Positions 27,526 through 42,253 are shown, counted from the stretch's first letter. The stretch: 64,000 nt of DNA from Candidatus Bathyarchaeota archaeon (GCA_963775895.1 CAVZKL010000009.1:40844-104843), one strand, 5' to 3'. A program made the numbers and translations. Notes: generated from the sequence alone by a model not told the origin.

Positions 27526-27927
27526 CTATTGTCTTTCTATCAGCTCGATCAATGTTCCATCTGGATCTTCTATGAACGCTATTACTGGCCCGGTTGGACC
27601 TAACTTGTACGGTTCATCAGTGATAGTGATCCTGTTTTTCTGCATTATGGCAATCGTTTGCTTCATGTCTTTGATCTCAAAGGCAATGTGGTCAAACACC
27701 CTTTCTTCGTATTCTGCCTGAACGAATTTCTTCTGTTTCCTGAACCAGGTCAACTCTAGCCTCGCACCTTTTCCTTCAGGGTCCTGCAGAAAAGCAATTT
27801 CGGCGTCATTTTGTGGGATTTCTCGCCGGCTCAACAGTTTAAGTCCCATCAACCTGTTGTAGAAGTCAATCGACTTATCCATGTTGCTCGTTCTAACACT
27901 CGTGTGAGCAAATATCATCAAATTCAC
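27526..27927 (-). CDS. VOC family protein (lactoylglutathione lyase-like)
   Basis: HTSVR, SIDFY, LELT, DHIAF, FIEDPDGTLIELIE motifs. Confidence 0.88.
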   Translation of the reverse strand: MNLMIFAHTSVRTSNMDKSIDFYNRLMGLKLLSRREIPQNDAEIAFLQDPEGKGARLELTWFRKQKKFVQAEYEERVFDHIAFEIKDMKQTIAIMQKNRITITDEPYKLGPTGPVIAFIEDPDGTLIELIERQ

Positions 27928-28395
27928 CCGTGTACAGTGTAGTTGCCGACTATATAGAAATGATGCCAGAACAAGGTCAGGCGTGCGCGGGCCAGAGACT
28001 TGGAATCCTTTCGGGAACTGAGAAGAAGAGTCGCGGAACTGGCCAACAACTGGAAACGTAGAAACATTTTCGGAGAATTATTCGCTGTTTTTTCAGCCAT
28101 TGTGTACCTCCCCTCCTCGTTTTCAATGTATCATGAATATTAGGATCCAAATATGAGTGGCTTTTTGCTGCACTTTAGGGTTAGAACCTTGACCCAATAA
28201 CATCATGAGGGATCCGACTTGGAAACAACATGTCGAAAGCGTTTACCGCTACGAGTATACGTAGATTCTGTTACAAGAAATTCCTGAGATGGTGGGACAA
28301 GCCATAAGAATCGTAATGACTTAGTTATACCTAAAGAGAAGAATCGTTCATCAAGAAAGACGAATCTTGTTCTTTTGTGAGAAGTAGGTGGTTAC

Positions 28396-28521
28396 ATGCG
28401 GAAGAAAGGAGAAACATCAGTACAAGATCGAACACGGCCTCAACCTCGGAAGAAGAAGGAAAGAGAAAAGCAGCGTAAGGATAAAAAGCTTGCCAGACTT
28501 GAAAGGCAACAGTCCAGATAG
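28396..28521 (+). CDS. Putative 41-aa basic peptide
   Basis: AGGTGG ribosome-binding-like site, then MRKKGETSVQDRTRPQPRKKKEREKQRKDKKLARLERQQSR*. Confidence 0.4.
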   Translation: MRKKGETSVQDRTRPQPRKKKEREKQRKDKKLARLERQQSR

Positions 28522-28612
28522 GCTTAGTTAGTGTACGATGTCTTGGCACGAATGATGCGAAACGCACGCGCGCGCTCCCACAAATGATAGATAGATTTAA
28601 TATATCTTACCC

Positions 28613-29167
28613 GTGCAACAAACACGTATGCCAAAAGGGATCAAAGCAGTTATTCTCACCGCCGATAAGTTTGAGGACATGGAGTTGTTCTTTCCATATT
28701 TCCGCTTACTCGAAGAAGGGGTAGAGGTCGATATAGCTGCGCCCAAGAAGGGACATATCGAAGGAGAGCACGGTTACGGAGTCGAAGTCGATAAGAGCTT
28801 TGACGATATCCAATCGGATGATTATGATCTATTGTTGATTCCTGGCGGGTCGCCAGATGGAGCCCCGTCGGTGGTTAGGAAGGACACCAGGGCTCAAGCC
28901 ATTGCAAAGTCGTTTTTCAACTCCAACAAACCCGTTTCCTCTATCTGTCATGGTCCTTGGCTCTTGGCTTCCTCAGGCCTGGTAAATGGAAGACGCTTGA
29001 CTTCTTACTGGCATGATGGCGTTCCAGAGGACATAAAGAAAGCAGGCGGCATATACGAGGACAAAGAAGTAGTTGTTGACGGTAACCTTGTCACGTCACG
29101 CTATCCTGGGGATTTGCCCGCATTCATGCGAGAAACAATACGGATGGTCAACAGGATCAAAAAATAG
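28613..29167 (+). CDS. PfpI/DJ-1 family protein (intracellular protease/deglycase)
   Basis: FEDMEL, IPGG, ICHGPW, VVVDGNLVTSR motifs. Confidence 0.9.
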   Translation: MQQTRMPKGIKAVILTADKFEDMELFFPYFRLLEEGVEVDIAAPKKGHIEGEHGYGVEVDKSFDDIQSDDYDLLLIPGGSPDGAPSVVRKDTRAQAIAKSFFNSNKPVSSICHGPWLLASSGLVNGRRLTSYWHDGVPEDIKKAGGIYEDKEVVVDGNLVTSRYPGDLPAFMRETIRMVNRIKK

Positions 29168-29200
29168 TCTATGGAAACGTCCGGAACAGAATTTCCATGC

Positions 29201-29236
29201 TTGGTTGATGGATAAAACTTTACCCCAACCAACCAA
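29201..29236 (+). repeat. Palindromic cassette-boundary site, copy 1
   Basis: TTGGTTGATGGATAA-AACT-TTACCCCAACCAACCAA. Confidence 0.8.
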
Positions 29237-29295
29237 AGTCTTGATTTCAGTGTGGAACATAATCTTTAATTAGATATTGTTACGATTTCCTGTGT

Positions 29296-29553
29296 ATGGT
29301 GACTGAGAAGGAGAAGCGTCGCCTGAGACTTTACGGTGTCATCATAGTTTTGGTAAGCATCTGGGCGTTTTTCTTTGGATCAGGAAGAGGAATATTGGCA
29401 CAGTACTCCTATCTGGTTTGGGGGGCACCTATACTGGCTCTTGGAGCCGCAGTCGTCATTATCAGCTATCTCCTGCCTTCAAAAGAGACATCCCGAAAAG
29501 AGAACCTGAAAAACATTCAACCAGCCAAGAACCAAGCACAGCAGGTTGAATGA
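29296..29553 (+). CDS. Small two-TM membrane protein (cassette cargo)
   Basis: 85-aa ORF with two hydrophobic helices, alone between site copies 1 and 2. Confidence 0.7.
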   Translation: MVTEKEKRRLRLYGVIIVLVSIWAFFFGSGRGILAQYSYLVWGAPILALGAAVVIISYLLPSKETSRKENLKNIQPAKNQAQQVE

Positions 29554-29581
29554 AGCCTAAGCCACTTATTAGTAGAAAGAC

Positions 29582-29621
29582 GGTTTGGGTTTGGGGGTAA
29601 ACTTTACCCCAATCAACCAAA
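29582..29621 (+). repeat. Palindromic cassette-boundary site, copy 2 (followed by CGCGCGCGC)
   Basis: GGTTTGGGTTTGGGGGTAA-ACT-TTACCCCAATCAACCAAA. Confidence 0.8.
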
Positions 29622-29700
29622 CGCGCGCGCTGTGGTCAACGTTAGAGTAAAGCTTAATTGAGTGTTTTGTTCTGAGGCAATTAGGTTGGAGGTGGATTTC

Positions 29701-30186
29701 TTGAACCTTTTTGGGCATAAGACAGAACCTAAGGTTCTGTTGACTTATGATGTGATGATGAAATGCAAGTGCGGAGTGTGTCCAGTCCAAGCTAATAGTG
29801 CGTGTGCCAAACCTAAGATAATGGCTAGAGATGAAATGATGAAGAACCCGAGCTCTGAAATAAAGAGGATCATGACCCCTGGAATGATGCAGAACCTGGA
29901 AATGATGAAGAACATGAGCCCTGAAATGATGAAGAACATGTCAAAAGAACAGATGAAGAACTTGAGCGATGAAATGATGAAGAACACGCCAAGAGAACAG
30001 ATTGCGACTATGATGCCTAAAGTGGAAGATATGCCTGGGCCTTATTGTGCTAACGGTGTTGCAGTCTGTAAAGACCTTGATTTCAGCAAGACGTGCATTT
30101 GCAGCGGGTGCCAGGTTTTCAAGGACTTTAGTCTCATGAAAGGTAAACCAATGAGCTACTTCTGTAAAGACGGCAAAGCTATATAA
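29701..30186 (+). CDS. Cys-rich DUF2769-like protein with a Met-rich repeat insert
   Basis: CKCGVCPVQ..C and YCANG..C..CICSGCQV..YFC motifs; EMMKN repeats; GGAGGTGG SD before the TTG at 29701. Confidence 0.7.
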   Translation: MNLFGHKTEPKVLLTYDVMMKCKCGVCPVQANSACAKPKIMARDEMMKNPSSEIKRIMTPGMMQNLEMMKNMSPEMMKNMSKEQMKNLSDEMMKNTPREQIATMMPKVEDMPGPYCANGVAVCKDLDFSKTCICSGCQVFKDFSLMKGKPMSYFCKDGKAI

Positions 30187-30340
30187 TTTTTTTTCCACAC
30201 CTTTCTTCATCCGCATCTCCATCCACGTGGCCCTAGCCGTTTTTTGATTAGATTTCAGTCCTACCAACCAAGAACTAGGTGTAGAGCTTCCAATGGAGCA
30301 AGTTATCTTCCGCTAAAAGTGAAAGACCTTCTTCGCTTGA

Positions 30341-30375
30341 TTGTTGTTGGATAAAACTTCCCCCAAACCAACAAC
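30341..30375 (+). repeat. Palindromic site, copy 3 (upstream of the integrase)
   Basis: TTGTTGTTGGATAA-AACT-TCCCCCAAACCAACAAC. Confidence 0.75.
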
Positions 30376-30425
30376 AGACTTGTAACGAAGAACTTCCCCT
30401 CGCCCCCGCCCGGGTGCAAGCGCAA

Positions 30426-31488
30426 ATGTCTAACAAACATAATGTCGTATTGTATCTAGACAAGAAATTGGTTGAAAAGGCTCGTAGTTTTGGCTTCAAT
30501 CTCAGTAAGACCTTCGAAAATCGCTTGAAACACTTGTTGACGCAATTTTCACAGGTCAATTCTTTGAACAGCACTGAAAACAATAGTAATCTTGGTGATT
30601 GGTGGGCCGAGCCGGACTTGAACCGGCGACCTTTGGCTCGTAAAGCCCCAGAATCACCATCAGAAAATGAAAGTCAAATGCTTGAGCGATTTCATGACTT
30701 TCAAATTGTCGACTTGAGAAGAAACAAAAGAACAGCTTACGAAAAAAGTCTGGTTCACAAAGAGACTACTCAAAGCGGTTGCGAAAAGTCCTAATGACAT
30801 TACGGCAGATAACTTGAGAGGTTACTTGAAAACACTTGAAGGTTACAGTGCATCTTACTACAAAAATGCGTTGACGGCTCTAAAAGTGTTTTTCAGAGAC
30901 TTCTTGAAGATGCCTGAAGTTGTTGAGACTAAGTTTCCACATCAAATCTTCAGACCAAAACAGATTCTGAGCAGAGAACAACTGAGACAGTTTTACTCGT
31001 GTCTTGAAACAGCGAAAGAGAAAGCATTATTCATGTTGTATGCGACGACTGGGTTGAGAAGAGAAGAAATTCTATCACTCAAATCCGAAAACATTGACTT
31101 CAGTAAACGAATGATAATACCAAACAATCATGACGGTGAAACTAAGAAGTCATGGGTCAGCTTTTACAATGAAGAAGCAGAACAAGTACTGCAGGAATAC
31201 ATGAAAACAAAGAAGCCTTCTAGAAGTCAGAGATTATTCCCGATGCAGAGAGACGAAGTTGTTGAGCTATGGAAATCTGCCAGAGAAGAGATCAATATTG
31301 ACATTACGCCACAGAAGCTGCGTCAATGGTTCTGTTCAGAAATGTTAAGGTTAGGCGTATCTGAAACTTATGTTGATGCTTTCTGTGGTAGAGTGCCGAA
31401 GTCAGTCTTAGCCAGACATTATGCCGACTTCTCGCCGCAAAAACTCGAAGAAATCTACGAGAAAGCTAATGTCAAGATTCTATCATAG
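30426..31488 (+). CDS. Tyrosine recombinase/integrase, SSV1-like with the att site inside the gene; RHH-like N-terminus; 1-nt frameshift in an A run at about 30742-30747
   Basis: TTGLRREE (R), GETKK (K), TPQKLRQW (R), GRVPKSVLARHY (Y); removing one A gives a continuous ..TAYEKVWFTKRLLKAVAKSPNDITADNLRGYLK.. Confidence 0.88.
30600..30647 (-). repeat. att site: duplicate of the tRNA-Val 3' half
   Basis: 48-nt match to 37818-37865 with two mismatches (GGGCCGAGCCGG vs GGGCCGGACCGG). Confidence 0.92.
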
Positions 31489-31501
31489 GCGCGCGCGAGG
31501 A

Positions 31502-33182
31502 CTAGGTTTCTGCTTTTCTCAATAGTTCTTCAGCGTTCTTAACTGAGATACGGTAGAAGATCAAGGTTATGACGGCAGCGATTATTGAGCTCAACACAAC
31601 AGCTACATAGAGGTCCATAAAAGGTTGAGCCAGACTTGGGACAAAAGATGAAAGCAGATACGGCGCGAAAGGAACCAGTATTGCTATTGCCACGAGGAAA
31701 CATAAGATCAGGTTGATGAAGCCCTGCAAAGTTCGAATCATTCTCGGTCGAGGAACTTCAGTAAAGTCGGCTCCCTTTATGCCGTTCGACAATGAAATAG
31801 ATCCCAATGTGAACGCCAAGAAGATCGATTCAAGCAGTGCCACAAAAACAGTCCTTAGGGAAGGGTGAAAAGCTATGAATCCAACGGTGCCTGTGACAAC
31901 CAAAATTGCGAGTGAGAAGAAGATTATGAAAAAGTACTTGCTCTTCACAAGACTCTTGGGGGAAATCGGAGATGAGTAGATCCGCCAGATTGTCATTCCT
32001 TCTTCACCTATCATGAACGTACCCAGCATTGTCGCCATAGCAGCGCTCGGAAGGAGGAAAACTAAAGCAACCAAAAACAATGATGCTTCGGTCGGAACTG
32101 GTCTCCCCATTTGGCCTAGAGCCCTGCATGATTGGTGCCAAGATGATTACTATTGGTAGTATGAAAACAACCATCAACTCTCGACGACGAGTAAACGCCT
32201 TCAGATCCTTTCTGATCAGCGCACCCTCTGTCGTAGAAAAACCTAGTCTGCCGAGTAGACCAATTTTTGGTGCGTAAACGCTTCGTGATACCGTGATAGC
32301 AGGAGGCTCGTAAAGTCCGTACCTTCCGTTAAGGAAAGTGGCAAGGTAGAACAAGGCAGCTATGAATCCGAGGGAAAGAACCACGAAAGCGATGCCCTGC
32401 AAAATCAACCCATTTAGGAAACTGTACAGCGTCATACCCAACCACACAAAAGGTATAAACCAAATCGCGCTCTGCGCCGACGCAATAGTCTGCACCAGGT
32501 AAATTCCTCCTGAGCCCGAAACCACGTAGAAATATACGATATAGAATACCAAAAAAAGCAGCAGGGAACCCACGAACCTCACCCAAATCGCGGCTCGACC
32601 AGTGGACTTGTAGATTGCGCCTATGAATCTGACCTGTAGGACTCTGAAAACCTCAGTCACTGCACTGGCCATGAAAGCAGAGGCACATACGGCGAGGATT
32701 GTTGCTGCTGCGGCGGCGACCTGGCCAGTGAACGTGGAAAACAGGACTATGGCTGGTGCGATGAACAGTATTGAAACAAGCGGAATACCAAGAAGGTTGG
32801 TCAGAATGGATGCAAGAGTGTGCTCCCCCCAAGTGATGGGCAGCCAATAAGGCGCCTGAAGGGAAAACTTGGCTCCACTACGCTGAATCTGCTGCAACAT
32901 AGTAAAAACTAGACTATAGATCAGCACCAGGGTCGGTAGACCAAGAAAAAGGCTCAACATGCCTTGGTTAGCCAGAGCAGCAAAATTCGGATCAGTCGCC
33001 GAAGCTGAAACGTAAAACATACCCGCAAGTGCGCCCACCACCAGACCCAGAACCAAAGCCCCTCCGTAGAGCACATAAGTGAAGATTCTGCTCTCGCGAA
33101 ATCTTGTCAGTCTCCTCCCTCTGAGAAATCGACCAGATTTCATGTCTATTCGCATAAGGTGCAGTACGTTCTTCCAGTTCAT
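31502..33182 (-). CDS. ABC-2 type transporter permease (frameshift near 32110)
   Basis: Two consecutive multi-TM ORFs (33182-32004, 32110-31502) downstream of an ABC ATPase; KDLKAFTRRRE and SPIS..SLVKSK motifs. Confidence 0.8.
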
Positions 33183-33958
33183 TTCAACAGTTCCTCTACA
33201 ACTGGTCTTATGTCACCAGTGCCCGTCAGCTTGAGGAAGATGTCTTCCAAGGCGGAATCAGGCAGTTTCGCCATTTCCCTCAACTCATCCATTGTACCTA
33301 GTGCCAAGAGCTTTCCGTGGTACATGATGCCTATGCGGTCGCAGAGCGCTTGGGCTATTTCCAATACGTGTGTAGACATCATCGTGGTCACTCCCTGAGC
33401 TTTCAGCTCATGCAGAAAGTCTTTGACAATTCGAGCGGACCTGGGGTCTAGACCGCTCAATGGTTCATCAAGAATCAACAGTTTCGGTTTGTGCATAAAC
33501 GCCGAAATCAATGCGACCTTCTGTTTCATTCCCTCGGAGTAGCTGCTTATCATGTCGCCTTCTCTGCCCTCTAGCTCAAGGGCCTTCAGATACTCGTTGA
33601 TTCTAGCTTTCTTTGCTTCAGTCTGCAAGCCGTATACGTCGCCTATGAAATCCAAGTATTCGATTCCAGTCAGGAACTCGTAGAGACGTGGAGATTCTGG
33701 AACATAACCGACGAGCCTTTTCACCGCAACTGGATCCCCCTGCACATCTATCCCCAGGACATTAAGCGTGCCCGAGTCAGGCTGAACCAAACCGAGAAGC
33801 ATCTTCATGGTGGTCGATTTACCTGAGCCATTTGGCCCCAACAGACCGAAGATTTCACCCGATCTAATGCTCAAGTCAACGTTGTCAACGGCCGAGATTT
33901 CGCCATAGCGTTTGACGATTCTCTTGATTTCGACCGCAGACGAATAGTCTGTTGCCAT
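33179..33958 (-). CDS. ABC transporter ATP-binding protein
   Basis: GPNGSGKST, YSEGMKQK, LILDEP, STH motifs. Confidence 0.92.
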   Translation of the reverse strand: MATDYSSAVEIKRIVKRYGEISAVDNVDLSIRSGEIFGLLGPNGSGKSTTMKMLLGLVQPDSGTLNVLGIDVQGDPVAVKRLVGYVPESPRLYEFLTGIEYLDFIGDVYGLQTEAKKARINEYLKALELEGREGDMISSYSEGMKQKVALISAFMHKPKLLILDEPLSGLDPRSARIVKDFLHELKAQGVTTMMSTHVLEIAQALCDRIGIMYHGKLLALGTMDELREMAKLPDSALEDIFLKLTGTGDIRPVVEELLK

Positions 33959-34514
33959 CATTAACGCACTCTCGACATTATACAACAACCTATGTATTTG
34001 AAATCGGCTTATGTCTTTCTATTTTCTGTTTGAAGGGTCAATTTCAGCGCGCGCATACCTCAGACGCAAATGCGAACTCTAACACGAACAAAACCGAACC
34101 AACAAAACACCATCACTTTTCAGAGGGTCCCTGGAAGGTTTGTGACGTAGTTTGTGTGTTTGACGTTTGCGCTGTTTGTCAGCGATTTGTGTGTGCGATC
34201 AGTTGTTGGTCGATAGTCTATCGTGCTACTGTATGTGTTGTATCGTACGAAGCGAACAAAGAGTCTGAAGAGAGATGCTTCGTTATTCTATTGTTCGCGC
34301 GCGCTAATCTAATAGAAATCTTAGAAATTCTCTTTTTCTTCTCAGCTTAGAAATTAGAATTTGGAAAGTTACCTGACTTTTTGAACAACATTGAGACAGC
34401 ATTGCAGAATATCAGACATAATCAAGGGTAGTGTTGTCAGGTGGCTACCTCATGAAGAGGTTTGAGAGAACTAAGAGACTGAAGAGAGATAGACTATTGC
34501 ACTATTCTCGCGCG

Positions 34515-34646
34515 CTATTTCTTACCTTTATTATATTCTGCAGGGAGTTCAACGTTCCGCTTCTCTTTCCTTTTCAGTTCCTTTTCTCTCTGCGATTTCA
34601 TGTGGTGTTTATGATCCATAGCTTTCTCTTTCTTGCCTTTGGGCAC
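34515..34646 (-). CDS. Putative 43-aa basic peptide
   Basis: AAGGAGGG SD, then MPKGKKEKAMDHKHHMKSQREKELKRKEKRNVELPAEYNKGKK*; the stop codon overlaps a CGCGCGC run. Confidence 0.45.
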   Translation of the reverse strand: MPKGKKEKAMDHKHHMKSQREKELKRKEKRNVELPAEYNKGKK

Positions 34647-34858
34647 AATTCACCCTCCTTAAGATTAGACTCTGCTCTTACGTCTATTAAAATTGCGCGT
34701 GCTTTGCCGTAGTAGAAACTGATGGATCGATCGATCAATGAGAGCAGTGGTTGAACAATAATATCATTACGGAGAGGTTGCAAAGAACTGAGAGGCTTGA
34801 CAGAGGTTCGTCGTCGTGTACACGAAGTGCACGTAAATGTGAAACGCGCGCGTCCTTG

Positions 34859-35269
34859 TCACGCTGGCACGCGCTTTGGGCCTTCTATACTCTTGAATGC
34901 CAATATGAAGCTTGCTGCGGGCAGAATAAACCCAACCGGCAGTAAAGGGAGAGCTGCAGCTCCCGGTATCAAAAATAGAAAGGAAGGCAGTCCATAAAAT
35001 CCGCCGGCAGCCATTCCCATCAAAATCAATATTCCACCTGGTATCGGTTTTCGATACCAGACGAGTATGCCGCCGACAATCATTAGAAACCCGCCTATGT
35101 AGAGGAAGGGCAAAAAAAGAAAATACGCAACGTTCGTCGCAAACAAAGTGAGAACTCCACTCGTAAGCCCTAACGCGGCTGAAACTTGGCGATAAACTGT
35201 TTTCCTCGCCACTACTCTGGAATCCGACTGCGCGGCTCTGGGGGAATTATTCGATTCGGACAAACTCAA
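34859..35269 (-). CDS. Hypothetical multi-TM membrane protein
   Basis: 136-aa ORF with about four hydrophobic helices. Confidence 0.7.
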   Translation of the reverse strand: MSLSESNNSPRAAQSDSRVVARKTVYRQVSAALGLTSGVLTLFATNVAYFLFLPFLYIGGFLMIVGGILVWYRKPIPGGILILMGMAAGGFYGLPSFLFLIPGAAALPLLPVGFILPAASFILAFKSIEGPKRVPA

Positions 35270-35463
35270 ATCGTCCTAGAGTAGACTGATAAGTCTGTGC
35301 TCTTATTTCTTGCGAATTGATTGACAGGTCTCATAGAATCTGTTCTGCCTAGTCACCTGAACACAGAGCCCCCATGCGTCAAAACCTTAACACTTCGAGT
35401 CAGTCAACTCGCAAAGATAGTTTCTGACGTGTGAAGGGAATTGCGGTTTTTGGTTGAATTTTT

Positions 35464-35497
35464 TGGGTTTGGGTTTGAGATAAGACTTTACCCAACC
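35464..35497 (+). repeat. Palindromic site, copy 4 (right arm cut by CGCGCGCGC)
   Basis: TGGGTTTGGGTTTGAGATAA-GACT-TTACCCAAC. Confidence 0.78.
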
Positions 35498-35543
35498 GCG
35501 CGCGCATTGGTAGAAGACAATTGATCTTGGGGGTTCACGCCTT

Positions 35544-35933
35544 TCATTCAGAACGAGACTGTCTCACATGTCTAATCGCGAGGTACGTCACGACGATACC
35601 GATCAGAGCAAAGAGGATTCCCCAAATGTCAATTGAAGACAACAGGTAGATGTAGTAGATCGATCCTGCAAATATGATCAAACCGTAGAGCATCATCGAA
35701 TAGACAAAGATGTTTTTCTTTTCCCAAAACAAGCTCACCAAGATCACGGCTACGCATGGAAACAACAAACCGGCCGATATGATAGTGATGAGCGTTCCTG
35801 CAGCGTCAATATTCCCTCCTGACAAAACAAGAATGAAGTAAAGAATCAGTGCATCAAGAACTGTGGCTGCCATAGAATAGAACAATGTAGTGAGTCTTGG
35901 CTTCAGTCCATCATCAGAAGACGTGTCTTCCAT
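35544..35933 (-). CDS. Hypothetical four-TM membrane protein (cassette cargo)
   Basis: ATG at 35933; hydrophobic ORF alone between site copies 4 and 5. Confidence 0.72.
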   Translation of the reverse strand: MEDTSSDDGLKPRLTTLFYSMAATVLDALILYFILVLSGGNIDAAGTLITIISAGLLFPCVAVILVSLFWEKKNIFVYSMMLYGLIIFAGSIYYIYLLSSIDIWGILFALIGIVVTYLAIRHVRQSRSE

Positions 35934-35992
35934 ATGAGTGACTTTCTTCGTTCTCGCTCTAAAGTCTTGCGAAGAGCTAAAATTGCGCGTGC

Positions 35993-36017
35993 GATAAAAC
36001 TTTACCCCCAAACCCAA
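35993..36017 (+). repeat. Palindromic site, copy 5 (left arm replaced by GCGCGTGC)
   Basis: GATAA-AACT-TTACCCCCAAACCCAA. Confidence 0.78.
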
Positions 36018-36069
36018 GCCTTGCGATGCAAAAACAAGTATTTTAATACCGAGTTGAACGCTTTGTTGT

Positions 36070-36486
36070 GTGGGGAAAGATTTGTCACAGCAACAACCAC
36101 CGCCACCACCACCGCCAATACCAACAAAGAGAACAGGTTATCCAATTGCCGCAGCCATTCTAGCAATCATTGCTTCTGGTATAGAAGCGCGCTACATCGT
36201 ATTCCTTTTTGTTGGGGCACCTGGTTCGCTTTGGGTGTTAATAGGAATCTTCGCTGTTGTCGTTTTTGCATTTGGTTTGACGGGGGGAATATTCTCGATA
36301 GGACGGAGACACTTTGGGTTGTCAATATTCGGGATGAGTCTTCTAACACTTATGGGATTTTTCGCGCTGTTAATCCCTGCGCTGTTCGGTGAACTGAACA
36401 GCGGATTGTATGTTGGAATACCCATAATCATCCCTTCAATCTTGAGCGTTATCTTCACTGCCATATCCAAGAGTGAGTTCACTTAG
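36070..36486 (+). CDS. Hypothetical membrane protein with a Gln/Pro-rich N-terminus
   Basis: QQQPPPPPPP followed by four TM helices. Confidence 0.72.
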   Translation: MGKDLSQQQPPPPPPPIPTKRTGYPIAAAILAIIASGIEARYIVFLFVGAPGSLWVLIGIFAVVVFAFGLTGGIFSIGRRHFGLSIFGMSLLTLMGFFALLIPALFGELNSGLYVGIPIIIPSILSVIFTAISKSEFT

Positions 36487-36509
36487 GAAGCTTAGCGCGT
36501 ATTCGCGAG

Positions 36510-36991
36510 GTGATGTTGATGAACATTCACTTAAGAGAAGCAAAAGCAACTGACATGCCATTAGTGAAGAAAATCGCTGTTGAAACATCGTGGGAATATA
36601 TCCCTGAAACACAGAAAAAGCTTCTCGATAGAGAGAAATGGAATATGCGTGTGATTGAGTATTATGAGAATGTGTTGAAGGAGGAAAATAGCGAGGTCTT
36701 TATCGCAGAGGATGAACACCATAAGTATGTTGGACACTTGATCGTTGGACAAACCAGAGGCACGATTACTGAGCTGAGCTTCGGCTATATTTACGATATT
36801 TTTATTGAAGAGAAATTCAGAGGCAAGGAAATCGGGAAGATGCTTTGGAAAAGGCGGAAGATTATTGTCGAGAGAAAGGGCATTCCAGAATTGCTCTTTC
36901 GGTATCAGCGACAAATGACTCTGCAATAAAGCTTTACAGCAGAACTGGATACAAACCAGAACGAATAACCATGGCAAAAGAGATAACCTGA
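36510..36991 (+). CDS. GNAT family N-acetyltransferase (frameshift near 36848)
   Basis: GYIYDIFIEEKFRGKEIGK motif A; the C-terminus (..LSVSATNDSAIKLYSRTGY..) continues in another frame to TGA at 36991. Confidence 0.8.
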
Positions 36992-37004
36992 CAGTAGTTT
37001 TGTG

Positions 37005-37040
37005 TGTGTGTTTGGGATAAAACTTTACCCCAACCAACAA
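37005..37040 (+). repeat. Palindromic site, copy 6
   Basis: TGTGTGTTTGGGATAA-AACT-TTACCCCAACCAACAA. Confidence 0.8.
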
Positions 37041-37099
37041 TGCGTGAATGAGACTTCGTTTGTTTTTTCTTATTCCTGCTAGTGAACACCTGCCAACAG

Positions 37100-37517
37100 T
37101 CATCGTTGACTCTCGGAAACCCTGATTTGCCGTAGAATATTCGCAGTGTCGTATTCGACCCATTCTTCAACGATTTTTCCAGCCTTGAACAGAACAATAT
37201 CCATGTAGGATATCGCAATTCGCTTTCCAGTTGCGGGAACGCCCTGATATTCTCCGGTATGAGTGCAATACATTGTTATGCGATTAGCGACCTTGTCATT
37301 TTCAGCGATTTGGTCTTCCACAACTGCTTCAATGTTAGAGAACGCCTTGAGAAACACCATTTCATCTCTTTTTCTCTCCTGAGTTCATCGATTCTCCACC
37401 TCCTCTAGGATGGAGAACGTAGCCGGAGCCTATGAATTTCATTACAGCACCTATATCTCCAGTATTATACGCCTCAAAGTAGCTACGAGCTATCGCCTTG
37501 TTGAGTACAGAAGACAT
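37100..37517 (-). CDS. SnoaL-like ester cyclase family protein (one frameshift)
   Basis: MSSVLNKAIARSYFEAYNTGD ... IAENDKVA..THTGEYQGVPATGK..GKIVEEW. Confidence 0.8.
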
Positions 37518-37561
37518 AATATGCAGACACCACCGTCAATTTGTCAGTATCTGACGGCATT

Positions 37562-37590
37562 TAGATAAGACTTTACCCTCAAGCCCAATC
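37562..37590 (+). repeat. Palindromic site, copy 7 (upstream of Int(N))
   Basis: TAGATAA-GACT-TTACCCTCAAGCCCAATC. Confidence 0.72.
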
Positions 37591-37643
37591 ACCAGACTTA
37601 TAACATAGAACGTCCCCTCGCCCCTGCCCGGGTGCAAGCACAA

Positions 37644-37907
37644 ATGTCAAACAAACACAATCTCGTCTTATATGTTGATCAAGATTTGGTTGAGAAGTCG
37701 CGTAATCTTGGCTTCAATTTGAGTAAGACCTTCGAAAATCACTTGAAACACTTGTTGACGCAGTTTTCACAGGTCAATTCTTTGAACAACACTGAAAACA
37801 ATAGTAATCTTGGTGATTGGTGGGCCGGACCGGACTTGAACCGGCGACCTTTGGCTCGTAAAGCCAATGTCCTAACCAAGCTAGACGACCGGCCCCCAGT
37901 TCACTGA
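37644..37907 (+). CDS. Integrase N-terminal fragment Int(N), RHH-like, reading into the tRNA on the opposite strand
   Basis: Near-identical to the 30426-30647 product (MSNKHNLVLYVDQDLVEK..GDWWAGPDLNRRPLARKA). Confidence 0.8.
   Translation: MSNKHNLVLYVDQDLVEKSRNLGFNLSKTFENHLKHLLTQFSQVNSLNNTENNSNLGDWWAGPDLNRRPLARKANVLTKLDDRPPVH
37818..37895 (-). tRNA. tRNA-Val(TAC)
   Basis: Reverse complement GGGCCGG TC GTCTAGCTTGGTTAGGAC A TTGGC TT-TAC-GA GCCAA AGGTC GCCGG TTCAAGT CCGGT CCGGCCC A CCA folds as a cloverleaf. Confidence 0.95.
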
Positions 37908-38040
37908 TTCTTAAATAATTGCTCTATTAAACTTGACTATCTGCTAACAAGCAAGGAGCGATTATTTCTTATAGTGCCAAGCAACAATTGGTACGATCAA
38001 ATCTGTCAGCAAAAGCACCCATTCACAAAAGTGAAAGTTC

Positions 38041-39116
38041 ATGAAAAGAATACTCGTGACAGGCGCGGGCGGACCCGCCGGAATAAACTTCACGATGTCG
38101 CTCAGAATAGCCCCTGAAAAAACTTTTCTTGCAGGAACAGAAGCAGACCAACACTTCATTCACCTAGCAGTAACCGACAGAACATATCTATGTGCCCCGA
38201 GCAACAGATCCCGAATATATTCGGCAAGTTGAACGAGATAATTAATAAAGAAAAAATCGAGTTCTTTCATGCCCAACCCGACATCGAGGTGGAAGTCGTT
38301 TCCGCCAACCGAGAGAAACTCGACGCACCCGTTTTTCTGCCTTCCAAGAAGACGGTTGAAACTTGCCAAGACAAATTTGAATCTTCGAAACTCTGGAGAA
38401 AGAAGAACGTACCAGTTGCAAAGTTGATGGAGATCGCAGACGAAAACGACATCGACAAAGCATTTCAAGAATTGGGCGCTCCCTTATGGATAAGGGCAAG
38501 CCACGGGGCAGGCGGAGTTGGAAGCACGCCAGCCGACAACAAGGAGACCGCACTTTCATGGATCACATACTGGAAATCGCGCAAGAAAGCATGGAAATTC
38601 ATAGCACAGGAACACTTGCCTGGAAGAAACCTTGCATTCCACAGCCTGTGGAAGGACGGCGAGCTTGTTGTGTCGATGGCAAGAGAGCGCATCGAATACA
38701 TTTACCCACACCTTGCACCTTCAGGAATAACGGGCACTCCGGCAGTGCAGAGAACCGTACATGACAAGAGGGTGAACAAGATTGGAAGCCAAGCAGTTCT
38801 CGCAATAGACCCGAAGTTCAATGGAATAGCATGTGTTGACCTCAAAGAAAACGAGAAAGGAACGCCATGCGTAACCGAAATCAACGCAGGACGAATGTTC
38901 ACGACATCTTACTTCTTCTCTTTCGCCAGCAAGATCATCCGCAGGGACTACTACGCAAACATTCCCTATCTCTACGTGAAACTCGCCTTCAAAGAGAAGA
39001 TCCCAGACGTTCCGAAATACGACGCACTACCCGAAAACGTGTACTGGATTCGCCACATCGACGCGCCAGCACGGCTTGTCAAGGACGGAAAGGTTCTCGG
39101 GGAAATGTACCGTTGA
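38041..39116 (+). CDS. ATP-grasp domain protein (carbamoyl-phosphate-synthase-like; frameshift near 38200)
   Basis: ILVTGAGGPAG N-terminus, QEHLPG, VDLKEN..TEINAGR motifs. Confidence 0.8.
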
Positions 39117-39607
39117 CAGAAGCAGTCATCTTCGATCTAGACGGCACCCTAGTTAACCTGCCGATCGATTATGACGCGCTATTCCAAGAATTCAAAGAAA
39201 TCATGAAAACATCGCGGGTTCGGCCATTAACAGAAACGATAGCCAAACTGGACGAAAAAACGAAGAAACAAGTCTTTCTTGCCTGGGAAAAAAGCGAACT
39301 GGAAGCGTTTGAAGAAGCCACGCCTAACGAAGAAGGGATGAGCCTTTACAGAGAGTTTACTCAAAAACCCAAGGCTCTCGTTACCATGCAGGGACGAAAT
39401 CTCGTCAAAAATGTAATTCAGAAACTGAGTTTAAGATTTGACTTCATGGTCACAAGGGAAGATTCATTGAACAGACGAGAACAATTCGAAATCGCTGCCA
39501 AAAAGCTGAGAGTACCCTTTCAGAAGGTTCTTTTCGTGGGAAACACCCTTGAGGATAGGAAAGCTGCTAAAGAAGTCGGATGCAAATTCGTGAGGGTGGG
39601 AGAATGA
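39113..39607 (+). CDS. HAD family hydrolase
   Basis: IFDLDGTL motif I; LFVGNT..D motif IV. Confidence 0.82.
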   Translation: MTEAVIFDLDGTLVNLPIDYDALFQEFKEIMKTSRVRPLTETIAKLDEKTKKQVFLAWEKSELEAFEEATPNEEGMSLYREFTQKPKALVTMQGRNLVKNVIQKLSLRFDFMVTREDSLNRREQFEIAAKKLRVPFQKVLFVGNTLEDRKAAKEVGCKFVRVGE

Positions 39608-40636
39608 GAATCTGGTATGATGCGTTAACTGGCAAACATGTCAGGTACGCCGTGGCAGTTGCAGAACGCCTAAGGAGGAAGGGACATGAAATCACACTGA
39701 CTACAAGAAAACATCCAGACACCCTACCTTTGGCGGACTACCTGAATGAAAGCTTTGTCGCCGTTGGGAAATTCAACCCCAAATCCTTACTGACAAGGCT
39801 AACAGAAGGCACACGACGACAACTCAAATTCTGCCAGAATCTTCGAAAAGAACCCTCCGGACGTAGCAATTTCACACGGTTCATCCGATCTCTGCAGAGT
39901 TGCATTCGGACTCAACAAACCTATAATCACAACCGTAGACACACCGTACGCAGATGCAGTCCACCGCCTTACTTTACCGTTATCAAAGCACATCGTTGCC
40001 TCAAACGCGATTCCTGCAAGAATCCTGCAAACCTATAACCCTAAGGCCGAATACACACGTTTTGAAGGCGTTGACGAAGTTGCGTGGATCAAAGGCTTCA
40101 AACCAAAGAAACAGTATGATTTTGGCAGACCACTCATTGTCATCAGACCGCTCGAAGAAAGAGCAGTTTATACAAAGGACAGAACGAATCTAGTCCAACT
40201 CGCCAAGAGACTTACAAAACTGGGCAACGTCGTATATCTTTCGAGATATGCACGCAAATCCGTCGATGGCTTGACGGTTCCAAACGGATTCGTCGATTCA
40301 GCAAGTCTAACTGCACAAGCCGACCTGTTCGTAGGAGTCGGAGGTACGATAACCCGAGAAGCAGCCTTACAGGGAACGCCAGCAATAGTAGTTAAAGTCT
40401 TCGAGGAACAATATGTTAACGAGTTTCTTTCCGAGAAGGGGTTCCCCATCTTCGAAACAGAGCCCTCAAATGCCTTCAAACTAGCAGAAAAACTGCTGGG
40501 AAAGAAACATGATGTCAAGCAATTGTTAGCGCAACTAGAAGACCCTGCAGACACAATCAAGAGAATCGTTGAAAAAATGCAAAAAAAGCTGACACGGGCT
40601 CAAATGCGCTCTGCAGCAAAATCCTTTCAAGATTAA
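39604..40636 (+). CDS. DUF354 family (GT-B-like) protein, with frameshifts
   Basis: MRIWYDALTGKHVRY N-terminus and GVGGTITREAALQGTP motif; split across several frames. Confidence 0.75.
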
Positions 40637-40667
40637 ACGCGCGACAATGACCATTTCTGTGCGCGCG

Positions 40668-40924
40668 TTCCTGAAACCCATTTTCCAGACGACATCATAA
40701 CCGACATACATAACTTGCTCCCTGACATTGTTGGAGATTTCAGTAATAAGAACGCGAAGACTCAGAGTTTTTTGATTGAAGAATTGCAACAGCAAGGCTG
40801 GAAGTTAGCACCCTACTTCACTGCAAAACCGAAAAACATAACACAACGAATCAAAACTTGGATTCATAGTACTGTAAGACTTTGTAAAGCAGGATGGGAA
40901 AAGTTGTTTGCCAGGAAAGTCTAG
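40668..40924 (+). pseudogene. 5'-truncated gene remnant beginning at a GCGCGCG run
   Basis: Open frame PETHFPDDIITDIHNLLPDIVG..FARKV* with no convincing start; begins immediately after 40661-40667. Confidence 0.45.
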
Positions 40925-41008
40925 AATGCCTAGACGGTTGCCTAGAAGGTTAAGGGAGTAGAAGACGTTGTTGAGGTTAGATAATCGTTTACATGAGGAG
41001 TAGAATGG

Positions 41009-41887
41009 ATGTTGAAGCTTGACCTAGTGATGTGGACTAAAAACGGTGAGATCACATTGCCAGCGGTCTTGGAGAGGATCAATAGTGTTGTGCCCTCAGA
41101 TGCGGTTAATCAACGCTTGATCGTGGATGACGCGAGCACTGACTCGACGAGAACTATTGCTGAGCGTTTCGGCTGGTTCGCTGTTTCAAATCAAGGTCAT
41201 GGGGTCAGTGATGGTGCAAACACCGCCTTGAAGCATGTTGAAACTGATTGCTTCGCAAGCTTCGAGCAAGACTTGTACCTCAGTAAGGACTGGTTTAACA
41301 AAATCGTCCCACGCGTCGCAGGCGGAAAGTACGCTGTCGCAAGTGGGATGAGGTTTGCGGATGCGCCAGTTCCGTTGAGGAAATTGGAGCAGTATGCTGC
41401 CAGAAAGTATAGAGGCGAAAGATATTTGAGTAGCTGGCTACGGAGAAGGGAACCAGTAAGCTTCAATTTTGGCAAAACCTTCGACAACACAGTTTACAAT
41501 ACGGAAGTACTCAAAGCTATCGGAGGCTTTCCCTCTGTCTTGAGAAACGCAGGTGTGGACACTGCATTGGCCTACAAGCTGAGAAGAATGGGCCTTGATT
41601 GGTATGTTGATTATAGCGTGCAGAGTCTCCATCTTCGCCATAATCTGCGACACGAACTAGAACATCAATTTTGGCATGGGCAACAGCAACGTGAAGTGTG
41701 GAAGGGTGTCGAAGCGTTTTCTGGCGACAGGATGCCCGTGAATGCTTGGAGCGTCATATTTCGGTTACTTATTTCGCCAGCAACAGGGCTTTTTGTCGCA
41801 TTAAAAATGGGTGACGCTAGAATAACCGTTGTCAATATTCTGACGAGATTTTACTTCACTTGGGGGTTTCTGCAAGGTAATGGTTAA
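41009..41887 (+). CDS. Glycosyltransferase family 2
   Basis: LIVDDASTDST motif; paralog of 43108-43995. Confidence 0.85.
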   Translation: MLKLDLVMWTKNGEITLPAVLERINSVVPSDAVNQRLIVDDASTDSTRTIAERFGWFAVSNQGHGVSDGANTALKHVETDCFASFEQDLYLSKDWFNKIVPRVAGGKYAVASGMRFADAPVPLRKLEQYAARKYRGERYLSSWLRRREPVSFNFGKTFDNTVYNTEVLKAIGGFPSVLRNAGVDTALAYKLRRMGLDWYVDYSVQSLHLRHNLRHELEHQFWHGQQQREVWKGVEAFSGDRMPVNAWSVIFRLLISPATGLFVALKMGDARITVVNILTRFYFTWGFLQGNG

Positions 41888-41901
41888 CTTTACGCGCGCG
41901 C

Positions 41902-42160
41902 TTATGAGGAACAACCAAAAGCAACACGCTTGCGTTTTTCAACACGTCTTTAAAGGCTTTGAGAGCTTTGATGGGGTTAACGATATGCTCCGCGCGCTCC
42001 CAAATGGTCTCTCTAGAGAAAATGCAGTTATCAAGACCTTCGACCATCCTATATACTGGCAAAATTGATCTCGCGGAAAAGATGGAGCTGGGACCACCAA
42101 TTTCCAACCGTTTTTCCCCTCAAAGTACGCTTTTGGGTATGCTTGAAGATTACGGCGCAT
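41902..42160 (-). pseudogene. SAM-dependent methyltransferase remnant, internally deleted and 3'-truncated
   Basis: EIGGPS...DNCIFSRETIWE|RA|EHIVNPIKALK..VLK...LLLVVPHK|; both breaks coincide with (CG)n runs. Confidence 0.6.
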
Positions 42161-42253
42161 AGGCGCACGCGCAACATAAACGAATGCGACTTCAAAACAC
42201 ACTTAAGCTTATATGCTGCAATATCCATCTCTCAACCTCTCCGGTGAGAAAGA

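Follow-up and report, generated by a model that had tools for sequence, protein, structure and literature searches.

The window, a 64,000-nt stretch of DNA from Candidatus Bathyarchaeota archaeon (GCA_963775895.1 CAVZKL010000009.1:40844-104843), contains an island of accessory DNA marked by short runs of strictly alternating C and G. We found that these runs are members of a lineage-specific family of short palindromes with the octamer GCGCGCGC as its core, and that they lie far more often than controls at the points where homology between variable segments ends. On balance, we favor the view that the octamer is the seam of an illegitimate recombination process of the end-joining type. Bathyarchaeia are abundant, uncultured archaea of sediment and wetland, and we know of no account of how their variable genome regions are built; the octamer at the seams of their accessory DNA points to an undescribed way of doing so.

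Both the window and the complete genome were scanned for maximal alternating C/G runs, with "run" below mostly denoting one of at least 7 nt. The window has 20 runs of at least 6 nt. Eleven of these are 7–9 nt long, and all eleven are confined to positions 28567-41997, where an earlier reading of this DNA from the sequence alone (hereafter the sequence-only reading) had placed each of them. The remaining ~50 kb has seven runs, every one a 6-mer, in agreement with the earlier impression that the housekeeping parts contain nothing longer. The shorter or variant copies that had also been listed fared less uniformly: the one at 40638-40643 is a 6-mer, whereas no run of at least 6 nt lies at 34695, 35985 or 42163, and an additional 6-mer missing from that list was recovered inside the run region at 36187-36192. 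On both strands of the window the 7-mers CGCGCGC and GCGCGCG have 25 matches, all within 28567-41997, as against 5.56 ± 3.02 in 100 dinucleotide-preserving shuffles of the window, none of which attains 25 matches.

The genome is a 1.77-Mb metagenome bin of 28 contigs (47.7% G+C, 89% complete) and contains 381 runs of at least 7 nt. A comparison of the run count with a Markov expectation, which the sequence-only reading had named beforehand as a check, bore it out: GCGCGCGC is counted 508 times on both strands, as against 41.4 expected from a first-order Markov model, a 12.3-fold excess. These 508 counts represent 254 sites because the palindrome is read twice, giving a density of about one per 7 kb. 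Among the 8-mers seen at least 60 times it ranks first by count as well as by the observed/expected ratio. From 3 to 6 nt the number of runs drops about 4.7-fold with each added base, with the 6-mers near this trend. Beyond it, there are 126 8-mers of the form G..C versus 29 of the form C..G, and about 40 of each 9-mer. The commonest form, A-GCGCGCGC-T, comprises 61 of the 126 G..C 8-mers, and AGCGCGCGCT has 56 sites versus a single one for the same letters written backwards as a control. The first base outward from a run is T in 55% of cases and positions +2 to +15 are at background, indicating that the unit is a palindrome of 8–10 bp standing on its own rather than the end of some longer repeat.

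The excess of the octamer is a lineage trait that appears patchily elsewhere in the class. All 10 other genomes of the same genus have it (29–464 GCGCGCGC sites), as opposed to 0–14 sites in eight other genera of the family, and a genus from a different family of the order has 53. Across 150 further genomes sampled evenly from the class, counts of AGCGCGCGCT are mostly close to zero and reach 24–131 in 11, which belong mainly to two other families; in one distant motif-rich genome all three sites examined lie between open reading frames (ORFs).

We then related the runs to genes and to conservation, using a crude set of gene calls (ORFs of at least 90 codons, the longest taken first in a greedy manner) that covers 82% of the DNA. 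As many as 273 of the 381 runs (72%) lie outside these calls, with 101 inside and seven on an edge. Run density per kb is 1.23 in convergent spacers, 0.81 in tandem and 0.68 in divergent ones, and a run lies within 10 nt of 32 out of 266 flanking 3' ends versus six out of 248 flanking 5' ends. Neighboring spacers both have a run in 57 pairs, as against 25.3 ± 4.4 expected (maximum of 40 in 1000 permutations), a clustering that exceeds what spacer length accounts for. Indeed, 36 islands amounting to 9.6% of the genome contain 218 of the 381 runs. In keeping with the earlier expectation that core DNA would not be equally rich in runs, a closed sister genome has 119 runs in its first 400 kb, of which only three fall within the 38% of this sample that aligns to the present genome, and in the same sample the run count per 10 kb declines with conservation (Spearman -0.51, p = 0.0008). 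The conserved blocks that are collinear in the two genomes are separated by 43 gaps; a run is present only in the one genome in six gaps, only in the other in four and in both in one, with ~0.8 shared gaps expected by chance. This absence of sharing at syntenic gaps, along with the avoidance of conserved DNA, indicates that the runs are not conserved landmarks but turn over with the variable DNA.

The association with breakpoints emerges from repeats within the genome as well as from a sister species. Among repeats of at least 150 bp, 18 of 333 ends lie within 5 bp of a run, as against 1.8 expected from ends shifted by 150–600 bp (maximum of seven in 200 trials). Of the 67 assessable ends of recent repeats (at least 85% identity), 24 have a run of at least 6 nt within 12 bp (4.2 in the shift control); the run is found in both copies at four of these and in one copy at 20. 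For older repeats the corresponding numbers are 8 of 120 ends versus 2.2 expected. Gene stops in general have a run in 77 of 1824 cases, so that recent-repeat ends have one about nine times as often; the link to breakpoints is therefore not a mere by-product of runs lying near gene ends. In the alignments the run usually starts 0–3 nt from the end of homology. Comparison with a sister species at 88–96% identity yielded 19 gaps between collinear blocks, and thereby 38 breakpoints, of which 11 have a run within 12 bp in either genome, as against 0.79 ± 0.86 in controls (maximum of four in 500), with seven of the 19 gaps involved. This comparison supports the earlier suggestion that the runs mark junctions. 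In three of these gaps (3, 8 and 13) unrelated segments occupy the same place, each with one run at one end. The span compared contains 18 runs, and 12 of them fall within the 22% that fails to align.

The contigs themselves tell a similar story. Within 25 bp of a run lie five of the 56 contig ends of the bin, as against 0.3 expected; a comparison of these ends found no shared sequence past the runs, and they fit assembly branches arising from strain differences at these points. Contigs (not reads) from four other studies contain island pieces whose loose ends read TAGCGCGCGCG at further positions. The summed depth of island pieces, which mixes organisms, reaches hundreds to thousands versus ~30 for the flanks in X1, and does no more than hint that the pieces occur widely. 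Two further lines were abandoned. A truncation test by blastx of run flanks gave 37 for controls versus 21 for runs and is confounded, because any position within a gene yields a one-sided match. A 21-kb versus 0.5-kb alternative in sister genomes may run in either direction and is no longer counted as a deletion, the 21 kb being mostly absent from two genomes.

At two joints the direction of the change can be established. Contigs C2 and C16, which may be paralogues or co-binned strains, have ~7 kb in common at 90–93% identity, and both of the cleanest length differences between them involve a run: C16:2985-2996 has CGTAGCGCGCGT in place of 439 bp of C2, and C2:6573-6581 has GCGCGCGC in place of 1334 bp of C16. 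In each case, an ORF of the long allele spans the breakpoint and has full-length homologues elsewhere (in G009 at 71% identity over residues 1-126 of 126; in a second set of matches from four genomes, up to residues 2-135 of 141). The existence of full-length homologues in other species implies that the short alleles are deletions that left gene remnants behind. The octamer sits at the joint of both short alleles; in the long alleles, both endpoints lack a run. At these two truncation joints the intact homologue has no run, and the homologue comparison favors a run that arose with the joint. A different contig pair provides a third length difference, which has no run. As a separate observation on the assembly, the contig sets C6/C22/C12, C13/C25 and C2/C16 overlap at 90–98.5% identity over 3–7 kb, and the bin therefore contains more than one strain or recent large duplications.

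If the octamer is indeed a seam, it would mark places where gene-sized modules were joined to new neighbors, where alternative segments were swapped between the same conserved flanks and where deletions cut into genes. One partner end of the illegitimate join would be the octamer, and this might come about in two ways: a break could be made at, or repaired beside, an existing octamer, or the octamer could be inserted as filler of the joint. The two deletion joints, whose long alleles have no run, favor an octamer put in at the joint. On the other hand, a metagenome contig (X4, depth 9.5) connects the run at 34047-34054 of the window directly to 34465, with ~410 bp missing on the right side of the run; by keeping the run and lacking the adjacent DNA it favors a break at an existing octamer. 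The excess of the octamer, its lineage pattern, its exclusion from conserved DNA, its place at breakpoints and the two deletion joints are direct observations; from them we infer that the octamer participates in the joining and does not merely survive there, and likewise that an enzyme recognizes or makes it.

End joining is favored by the arbitrary position of breakpoints in modules and genes, by the one-sidedness of the octamer in 20 of 24 recent-repeat ends, by the replacement of segments between fixed flanks and by the complete operon for such a process in this genome. The Ku, LigD primase-polymerase, ATP-dependent ligase and phosphoesterase genes lie together at locus L087 3398-6453 (C22, ~27.4-30.5 kb), flanked by tRNA synthetase genes and with the ligase in two overlapping ORFs. 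This Ku-LigD operon of the genus could seal the joints in question. Ku is present in seven of the 10 genomes of the genus, including all five that are at least 93% complete, and in one of 20 relatives outside it; in the sampled class it is rare (24 of 151 genomes). In mycobacteria, Ku-LigD joints have overhang fill-in, short additions and deletions, and we know of no constant GC-alternating filler in Ku-LigD end joining. As a determinant of the motif Ku looked promising within the family and was dropped as uncorrelated across the class.

Several observations weigh against the octamer as an end-joining seam. Only two events could be polarized, and the bulk of the 381 runs have no identified event behind them. 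Twelve of the 19 sister-species gaps and 43 of the 67 recent-repeat ends have no run, which means that runs are neither necessary for rearrangement nor its sole outcome. Across the class, Ku is found in two of 11 motif-rich genomes versus 21 of 139 others. The length distribution has a sharp peak at exactly 8 nt, which is hard to square with free tailing or with a tract that grows step by step; such an optimum is better suited to an 8-bp site that a protein recognizes, be it a nuclease, a recombinase or a binding protein. Restriction sites of 8 bp such as CGCGCGCG exist, and some phage telomere-resolution sites have a CG-alternating palindrome at their center. Searches of the genome, its islands and relatives found no octamer-specific nuclease, methyltransferase or transposase. 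Moreover, a run kept in both copies of a repeat mutates by point substitution just as its flanks do, showing that the octamer once formed behaves as ordinary sequence. The gene calls are crude, as noted, and the genome is a bin with co-assembled strains. The sequence-only reading had taken the runs for junction scars or a second recombination target, left by a process that either writes or prefers a CG tract. The link to junctions is strong, being borne out by four independent comparisons, namely those of paralogous repeats, of the two co-assembled near-identical regions, of sister species at 88–96% identity and of contigs from other metagenomes; either writing or preferring may underlie it. 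This twofold possibility as to mechanism, together with the run-free gaps, the many runs without a linked event and the sharp 8-bp excess, leaves that proposal only partly supported.

A more far-reaching version, which we see as a long shot, is that some Bathyarchaeia possess a dedicated joint-making process that writes GCGCGCGC as a universal seam. Broken or incoming ends would be given, or cut to expose, a self-complementary GC-alternating end, whereupon any two ends could pair and be sealed, leaving GCGCGCGC behind. If true, this would be a sequence-independent system of gene capture and gene erosion that marks the genome itself.

Alternatively, the octamer could be a cis-acting signal of accessory genes, for instance one to which a dimeric regulator or silencer binds or one that sets the boundary or termination of transcription units, and would be found at breakpoints only because genes along with their signals are the units that survive. 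We consider this unlikely. Its preference for gene 3' ends and its peak density in convergent spacers would suit such a signal, but no T run follows the octamer, only the +1 position being T-rich. An exact 8–10-bp palindrome with preferred A/T flanks has the usual shape of a site for a dimeric protein, and several runs in the window lie just upstream of TATA-like boxes; nevertheless, the distance to starts is not fixed, the same module occurs with or without a run depending on the genome, and only one of 11 run-bearing syntenic gaps is shared. A signal of this kind also fits poorly with the two runs that adjoin truncated gene remnants and with the enrichment at recent-repeat ends relative to gene stops.

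A second alternative is that the runs are footprints, targets or cassette ends of a site-specific mobile system. This might be a cut-and-paste element that has escaped notice and leaves GCGC...GCGC behind, or a set of integron-like cassettes that use the runs together with a second recurrent element of the island as sites. This second element has a GT-rich simple-repeat arm, the core GATAAAACTTTACC(CC) and a CA-rich arm, that is, inverted arms around an asymmetric core. The genome has 25 copies of it (with at most one mismatch), near-complete genomes of the genus have 20–40 and other genomes 0–5. It often adjoins a CG run, and some shared modules begin exactly at its core, such as one common to contig C23 that starts near 35990. 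Judged by its form, the element would suit a recombinase site, with a promoter or an RNA hairpin also possible. Contig joints between its copies have short sides of 20–29 nt and may be cross-mapping. A mobile system would account for alternative segments between the same flanks with one run at one end, for dense arrays of small units with runs on both sides of each (C10:42000-42900), for the genus-specific, inverted-armed GATAAAACTTTACC element at the start of some modules and for the integrase located in the island; the patchy spread of the motif through the class also resembles that of a mobile agent. However, two integrase loci in the entire genome (the other on C7) face 381 runs, the orientation of the GATAAAACTTTACC element is mixed in other clusters, and module ends differ from copy to copy, whereas integron cassettes have fixed ends. 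No recurrent transposase or nuclease family was found among 361 island ORFs, the largest family being ABC ATPases with five members. Nor were terminal inverted repeats found beyond the runs (4.3 of 16 matches inside versus 4.3 of 16 outside, over 245 run pairs), and the contig ends have no common sequence past theirs. A mobile system appears quite improbable to us. The only pair with 16 of 16 matches belongs to a 1.3-kb stretch on C22 (C22:3891-5225) that is its own reverse complement at 93.5%, with a membrane ATPase-like fragment inverted and GCGCGCGC at both borders; this inverted duplication may be real or an assembly artefact.

Known short-site systems resemble the present one in part. Integron attC sites, like the octamer, are short sites at one end of gene-sized modules, which form arrays near an integrase and recur in shifting contexts. 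The attC sites are structured, 55–140 bp long and define fixed cassette ends, in contrast to a 7–10-bp site with background flanks whose modules have ends that vary between genomes. Here, the modules also appear by eye to carry promoters of their own (TATA-like boxes), and the island integrase is of the tRNA-targeting type with its attachment (att) site within its own gene. Repetitive extragenic palindromes (REPs) and the bacterial interspersed mosaic elements (BIMEs) are likewise intergenic, GC-rich, multi-copy and near gene ends, and REPs are points of rearrangement and of insertion-sequence insertion. REPs are imperfect, hairpin-folding palindromes of 20–40 nt moved by RAYT transposases, whereas the octamer is only 8–10 bp long with background flanks, having neither the length nor the hairpin of a REP, and no RAYT-type transposase was seen among the island ORFs. 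As for Ku-LigD end joining, the full gene set is present in the genus, but in the class as a whole the occurrence of Ku does not follow that of the motif.

The nearest analogue is HIP1 (highly iterated palindrome 1, GCGATCGC) of cyanobacteria, which reportedly came to attention because it borders a deletion in a Synechococcus metallothionein locus. Both are octameric GC-rich palindromes that are over-represented and inherited as lineage traits. The 12-fold excess in the archaeon could accordingly reflect the same type of iterated palindrome, maintained by methylation-linked biased repair or chromosome-level selection and unrelated to joining. HIP1 is an octameric GC-rich palindrome in large excess whose function is unsettled (PMC4390886, PMC5861425). 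It is described as 15- to 300-fold over-represented and conserved within and between ORFs (PMC5861425), as having a density of about one per kb, compared with about one per 7 kb for the archaeal octamer, and as having alternate forms accompanied by a matching methyltransferase (PMC4390886). The archaeal octamer, on the contrary, lies mostly outside ORF calls, avoids conserved DNA and is not shared at syntenic gaps. Further, a C5 methyltransferase (PF00145) was not found in this genome, which is 89% complete, or in the closed sister genome (two of the 10 genomes of the genus have one), and matches to N4/N6 methyltransferases (PF01555) are near-universal, follow no pattern of the motif and are uninformative. 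Finally, a bias in point mutation cannot put an octamer at a deletion joint. We rate a HIP1-type origin as very improbable. Chance, base composition or an assembly or sequencing artefact has a negligible probability: notwithstanding the five contig ends at runs and the mixture of strains in the bin, the shuffles and the 12-fold excess over the Markov expectation speak against chance, and the same feature is seen in 10 further assemblies, among them a chromosome in a single contig, as well as in contigs from four other studies.

We found no description of the octamer in the literature on iterated palindromes, on archaea or on integrons and end joining in Bathyarchaeia, the HIP1 supplements aside. 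A seam mark would provide a simple finder of islands and recent rearrangements in Bathyarchaeia genomes, explain some assembly breaks and point to an enzyme that recognizes or makes an 8-bp palindrome. It would also be an archaeal counterpart to the long-unsolved HIP1 puzzle with opposite properties, being intergenic, unconserved and at breakpoints, and this contrast may ease testing of the link to recombination.

The island that carries the runs in the window is itself an integration hot spot (Table 1). Its integrase matches Phage_integrase and the archaeal phage integrase family of Pfam. The first of its two ORFs (30414-30794) is the N-terminal part, with an att-like copy of the 3' half of tRNA-Val, and the second (30814-31488) is the catalytic part. 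A direct repeat of ~300 bp (37561-37865 versus 30347-30647, 88% identity) comprises the integrase N-terminal coding region and the 3' half of tRNA-Val, and is what successive integrations by an integrase with an att site inside its own gene leave behind. The designation as a hot spot follows from this arrangement, which is the kind that such integrases leave. Pieces of the island (28294-28559, 29633-30191, 31503-32012, 34345-34837, 35542-35975, 35990-36487 and 36511-37008) recur at 82–96% identity, scattered through the present genome and through other species of the genus, compared with ~68–78% for core DNA.

Table 1. Alternating CG runs and principal features of the island, in coordinates of the window.
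Feature	Position	Strand	Context
CG run CGCGCGCGC	28567-28575		~25 nt upstream of TATA-like box of DJ-1/PfpI gene
CG run	29622-29630		directly 3' of GT-arm/core/CA-arm element; module 29633-30191 begins right after
CG run	31489-31497		occupies most of the 13-nt gap from integrase stop to ABC permease stop
CG run	34047-34054		59 nt upstream of ABC ATPase start
CG run	34296-34304		within the ~410-bp stretch missing from the X4 contig; preceded by a copy of the ~50-nt motif (…CTGAAGAGAGAT…)
CG run	34509-34515		1-nt overlap with TAG stop 34515-34517 of a 34-codon minus-strand ORF
CG run	34845-34852		right-hand homology breakpoint of module 34345-34837
CG run	35497-35505		truncates CA-rich arm of GT-arm/core/CA-arm element
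6-mer CGCGCG and 7-mer GCGCGCG	40638-40643 and 40661-40667		6-mer near stop of broken DUF354 gene
CG run	41893-41901		5 nt past GT2 stop 41885-41887
CG run, 7 nt	41991-41997		between two genes of GT2 region
Tyrosine integrase	30414-31488	+	two ORFs in different frames, 30414-30794 and 30814-31488
tRNA-Val	37818-37895	-	fused to second copy of integrase N-terminal region (feature 37561-37895)
Gene module, Cys-rich ORF with weak DUF2769 match	29633-30191	+	87–93% identity, scattered places in 4 genomes of the genus
Module	34345-34837		85–95% identity in 4 genomes of the genus; left end different in each
GNAT acetyltransferase module	36511-37008	+	two copies, 91–93% identity, in one sister genome
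GATAAAACTTTACC element	29209-29240, 29581-29621, 35462-35496, 35990-36020, 37000-37043, 37562-37590	+ (all)	six island copies

Individual runs illustrate how these pieces meet. A 266-bp segment (28294-28559), found again on contig C19 at 96% identity, ends 8 nt before the run at 28567-28575. In the four other genomes with the module of 29633-30191, there is no run at the point that matches 29622-29630. At 34845-34852, three other genomes continue alike and the window diverges right after its run. Two of the differing left ends of the module of 34345-34837 adjoin CG runs of their own (ACGCGCGCGCCCGC and AGCGCGCGCT), and the two GNAT module copies in the sister genome part from each other at CG runs. 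The run at 34509-34515 is kept in three of four homologous copies in other genomes, in one of these with one base changed, and one homologous copy has a 13-bp deletion there.

The sequence-only reading had placed runs 0–6 nt from the stop codons of six genes, in agreement with ORF coordinates and sequence, and Pfam matches confirmed its naming of the integrase, ABC ATPase and permease, DUF354 (in two pieces) and GT2 genes. In addition to the distances evident from Table 1, the integrase stop (31486-31488) directly abuts its run (0 nt), the ABC permease stop (31502-31504, minus strand) is 4 nt away, that of the gene at 34859-35269 (minus strand) 6 nt, and the DUF354 stop (40634-40636) 1 nt, though the run in this last case is a 6-mer. 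The run at 35497-35505 lies further off, 38 nt from the stop of the gene at 35544-36017 (minus strand). Two runs had also been described as replacing an arm of a palindromic site; those at 29622 and 35497 both abut the GATAAAACTTTACC element, but an arm is clearly shortened only at 35497.

Several further features of the neighborhood are recorded here. A motif of ~50 nt (…GAGAACTAAGAGACTGAAGAGAGAT…) has three copies, at 34250-34295, 34465-34508 and 34770-34844, with a CG run 20–45 nt after each, and is preserved in homologous modules of other genomes. The ABC permease (31502-33182) consists of two overlapping ORFs, with an intact paralogue of 546 codons on C16, and the DUF354 gene (39580-40636) is broken into an N-terminal and a C-terminal piece. 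An IMG/VR contig from a related organism (L055, 11.2 kb) is a fragment of a head-tailed provirus with capsid, portal and large terminase genes, alongside Shedu-like and TIR-domain genes, and carries the GATAAAACTTTACC element and four CG runs. Viral contigs with this element were considered as a clue to its origin and dropped, a provirus with four runs in 11 kb being uninformative. Finally, a promoter- and leader-like stretch of 57 nt (28099-28155, minus strand, upstream of the ORF at 27924-28100), with a Shine-Dalgarno-like GGAGGGGAGGT and a start codon, recurs in at least 20 places in the genome at 94–99% identity and at ~88–93% in other genomes of the genus.

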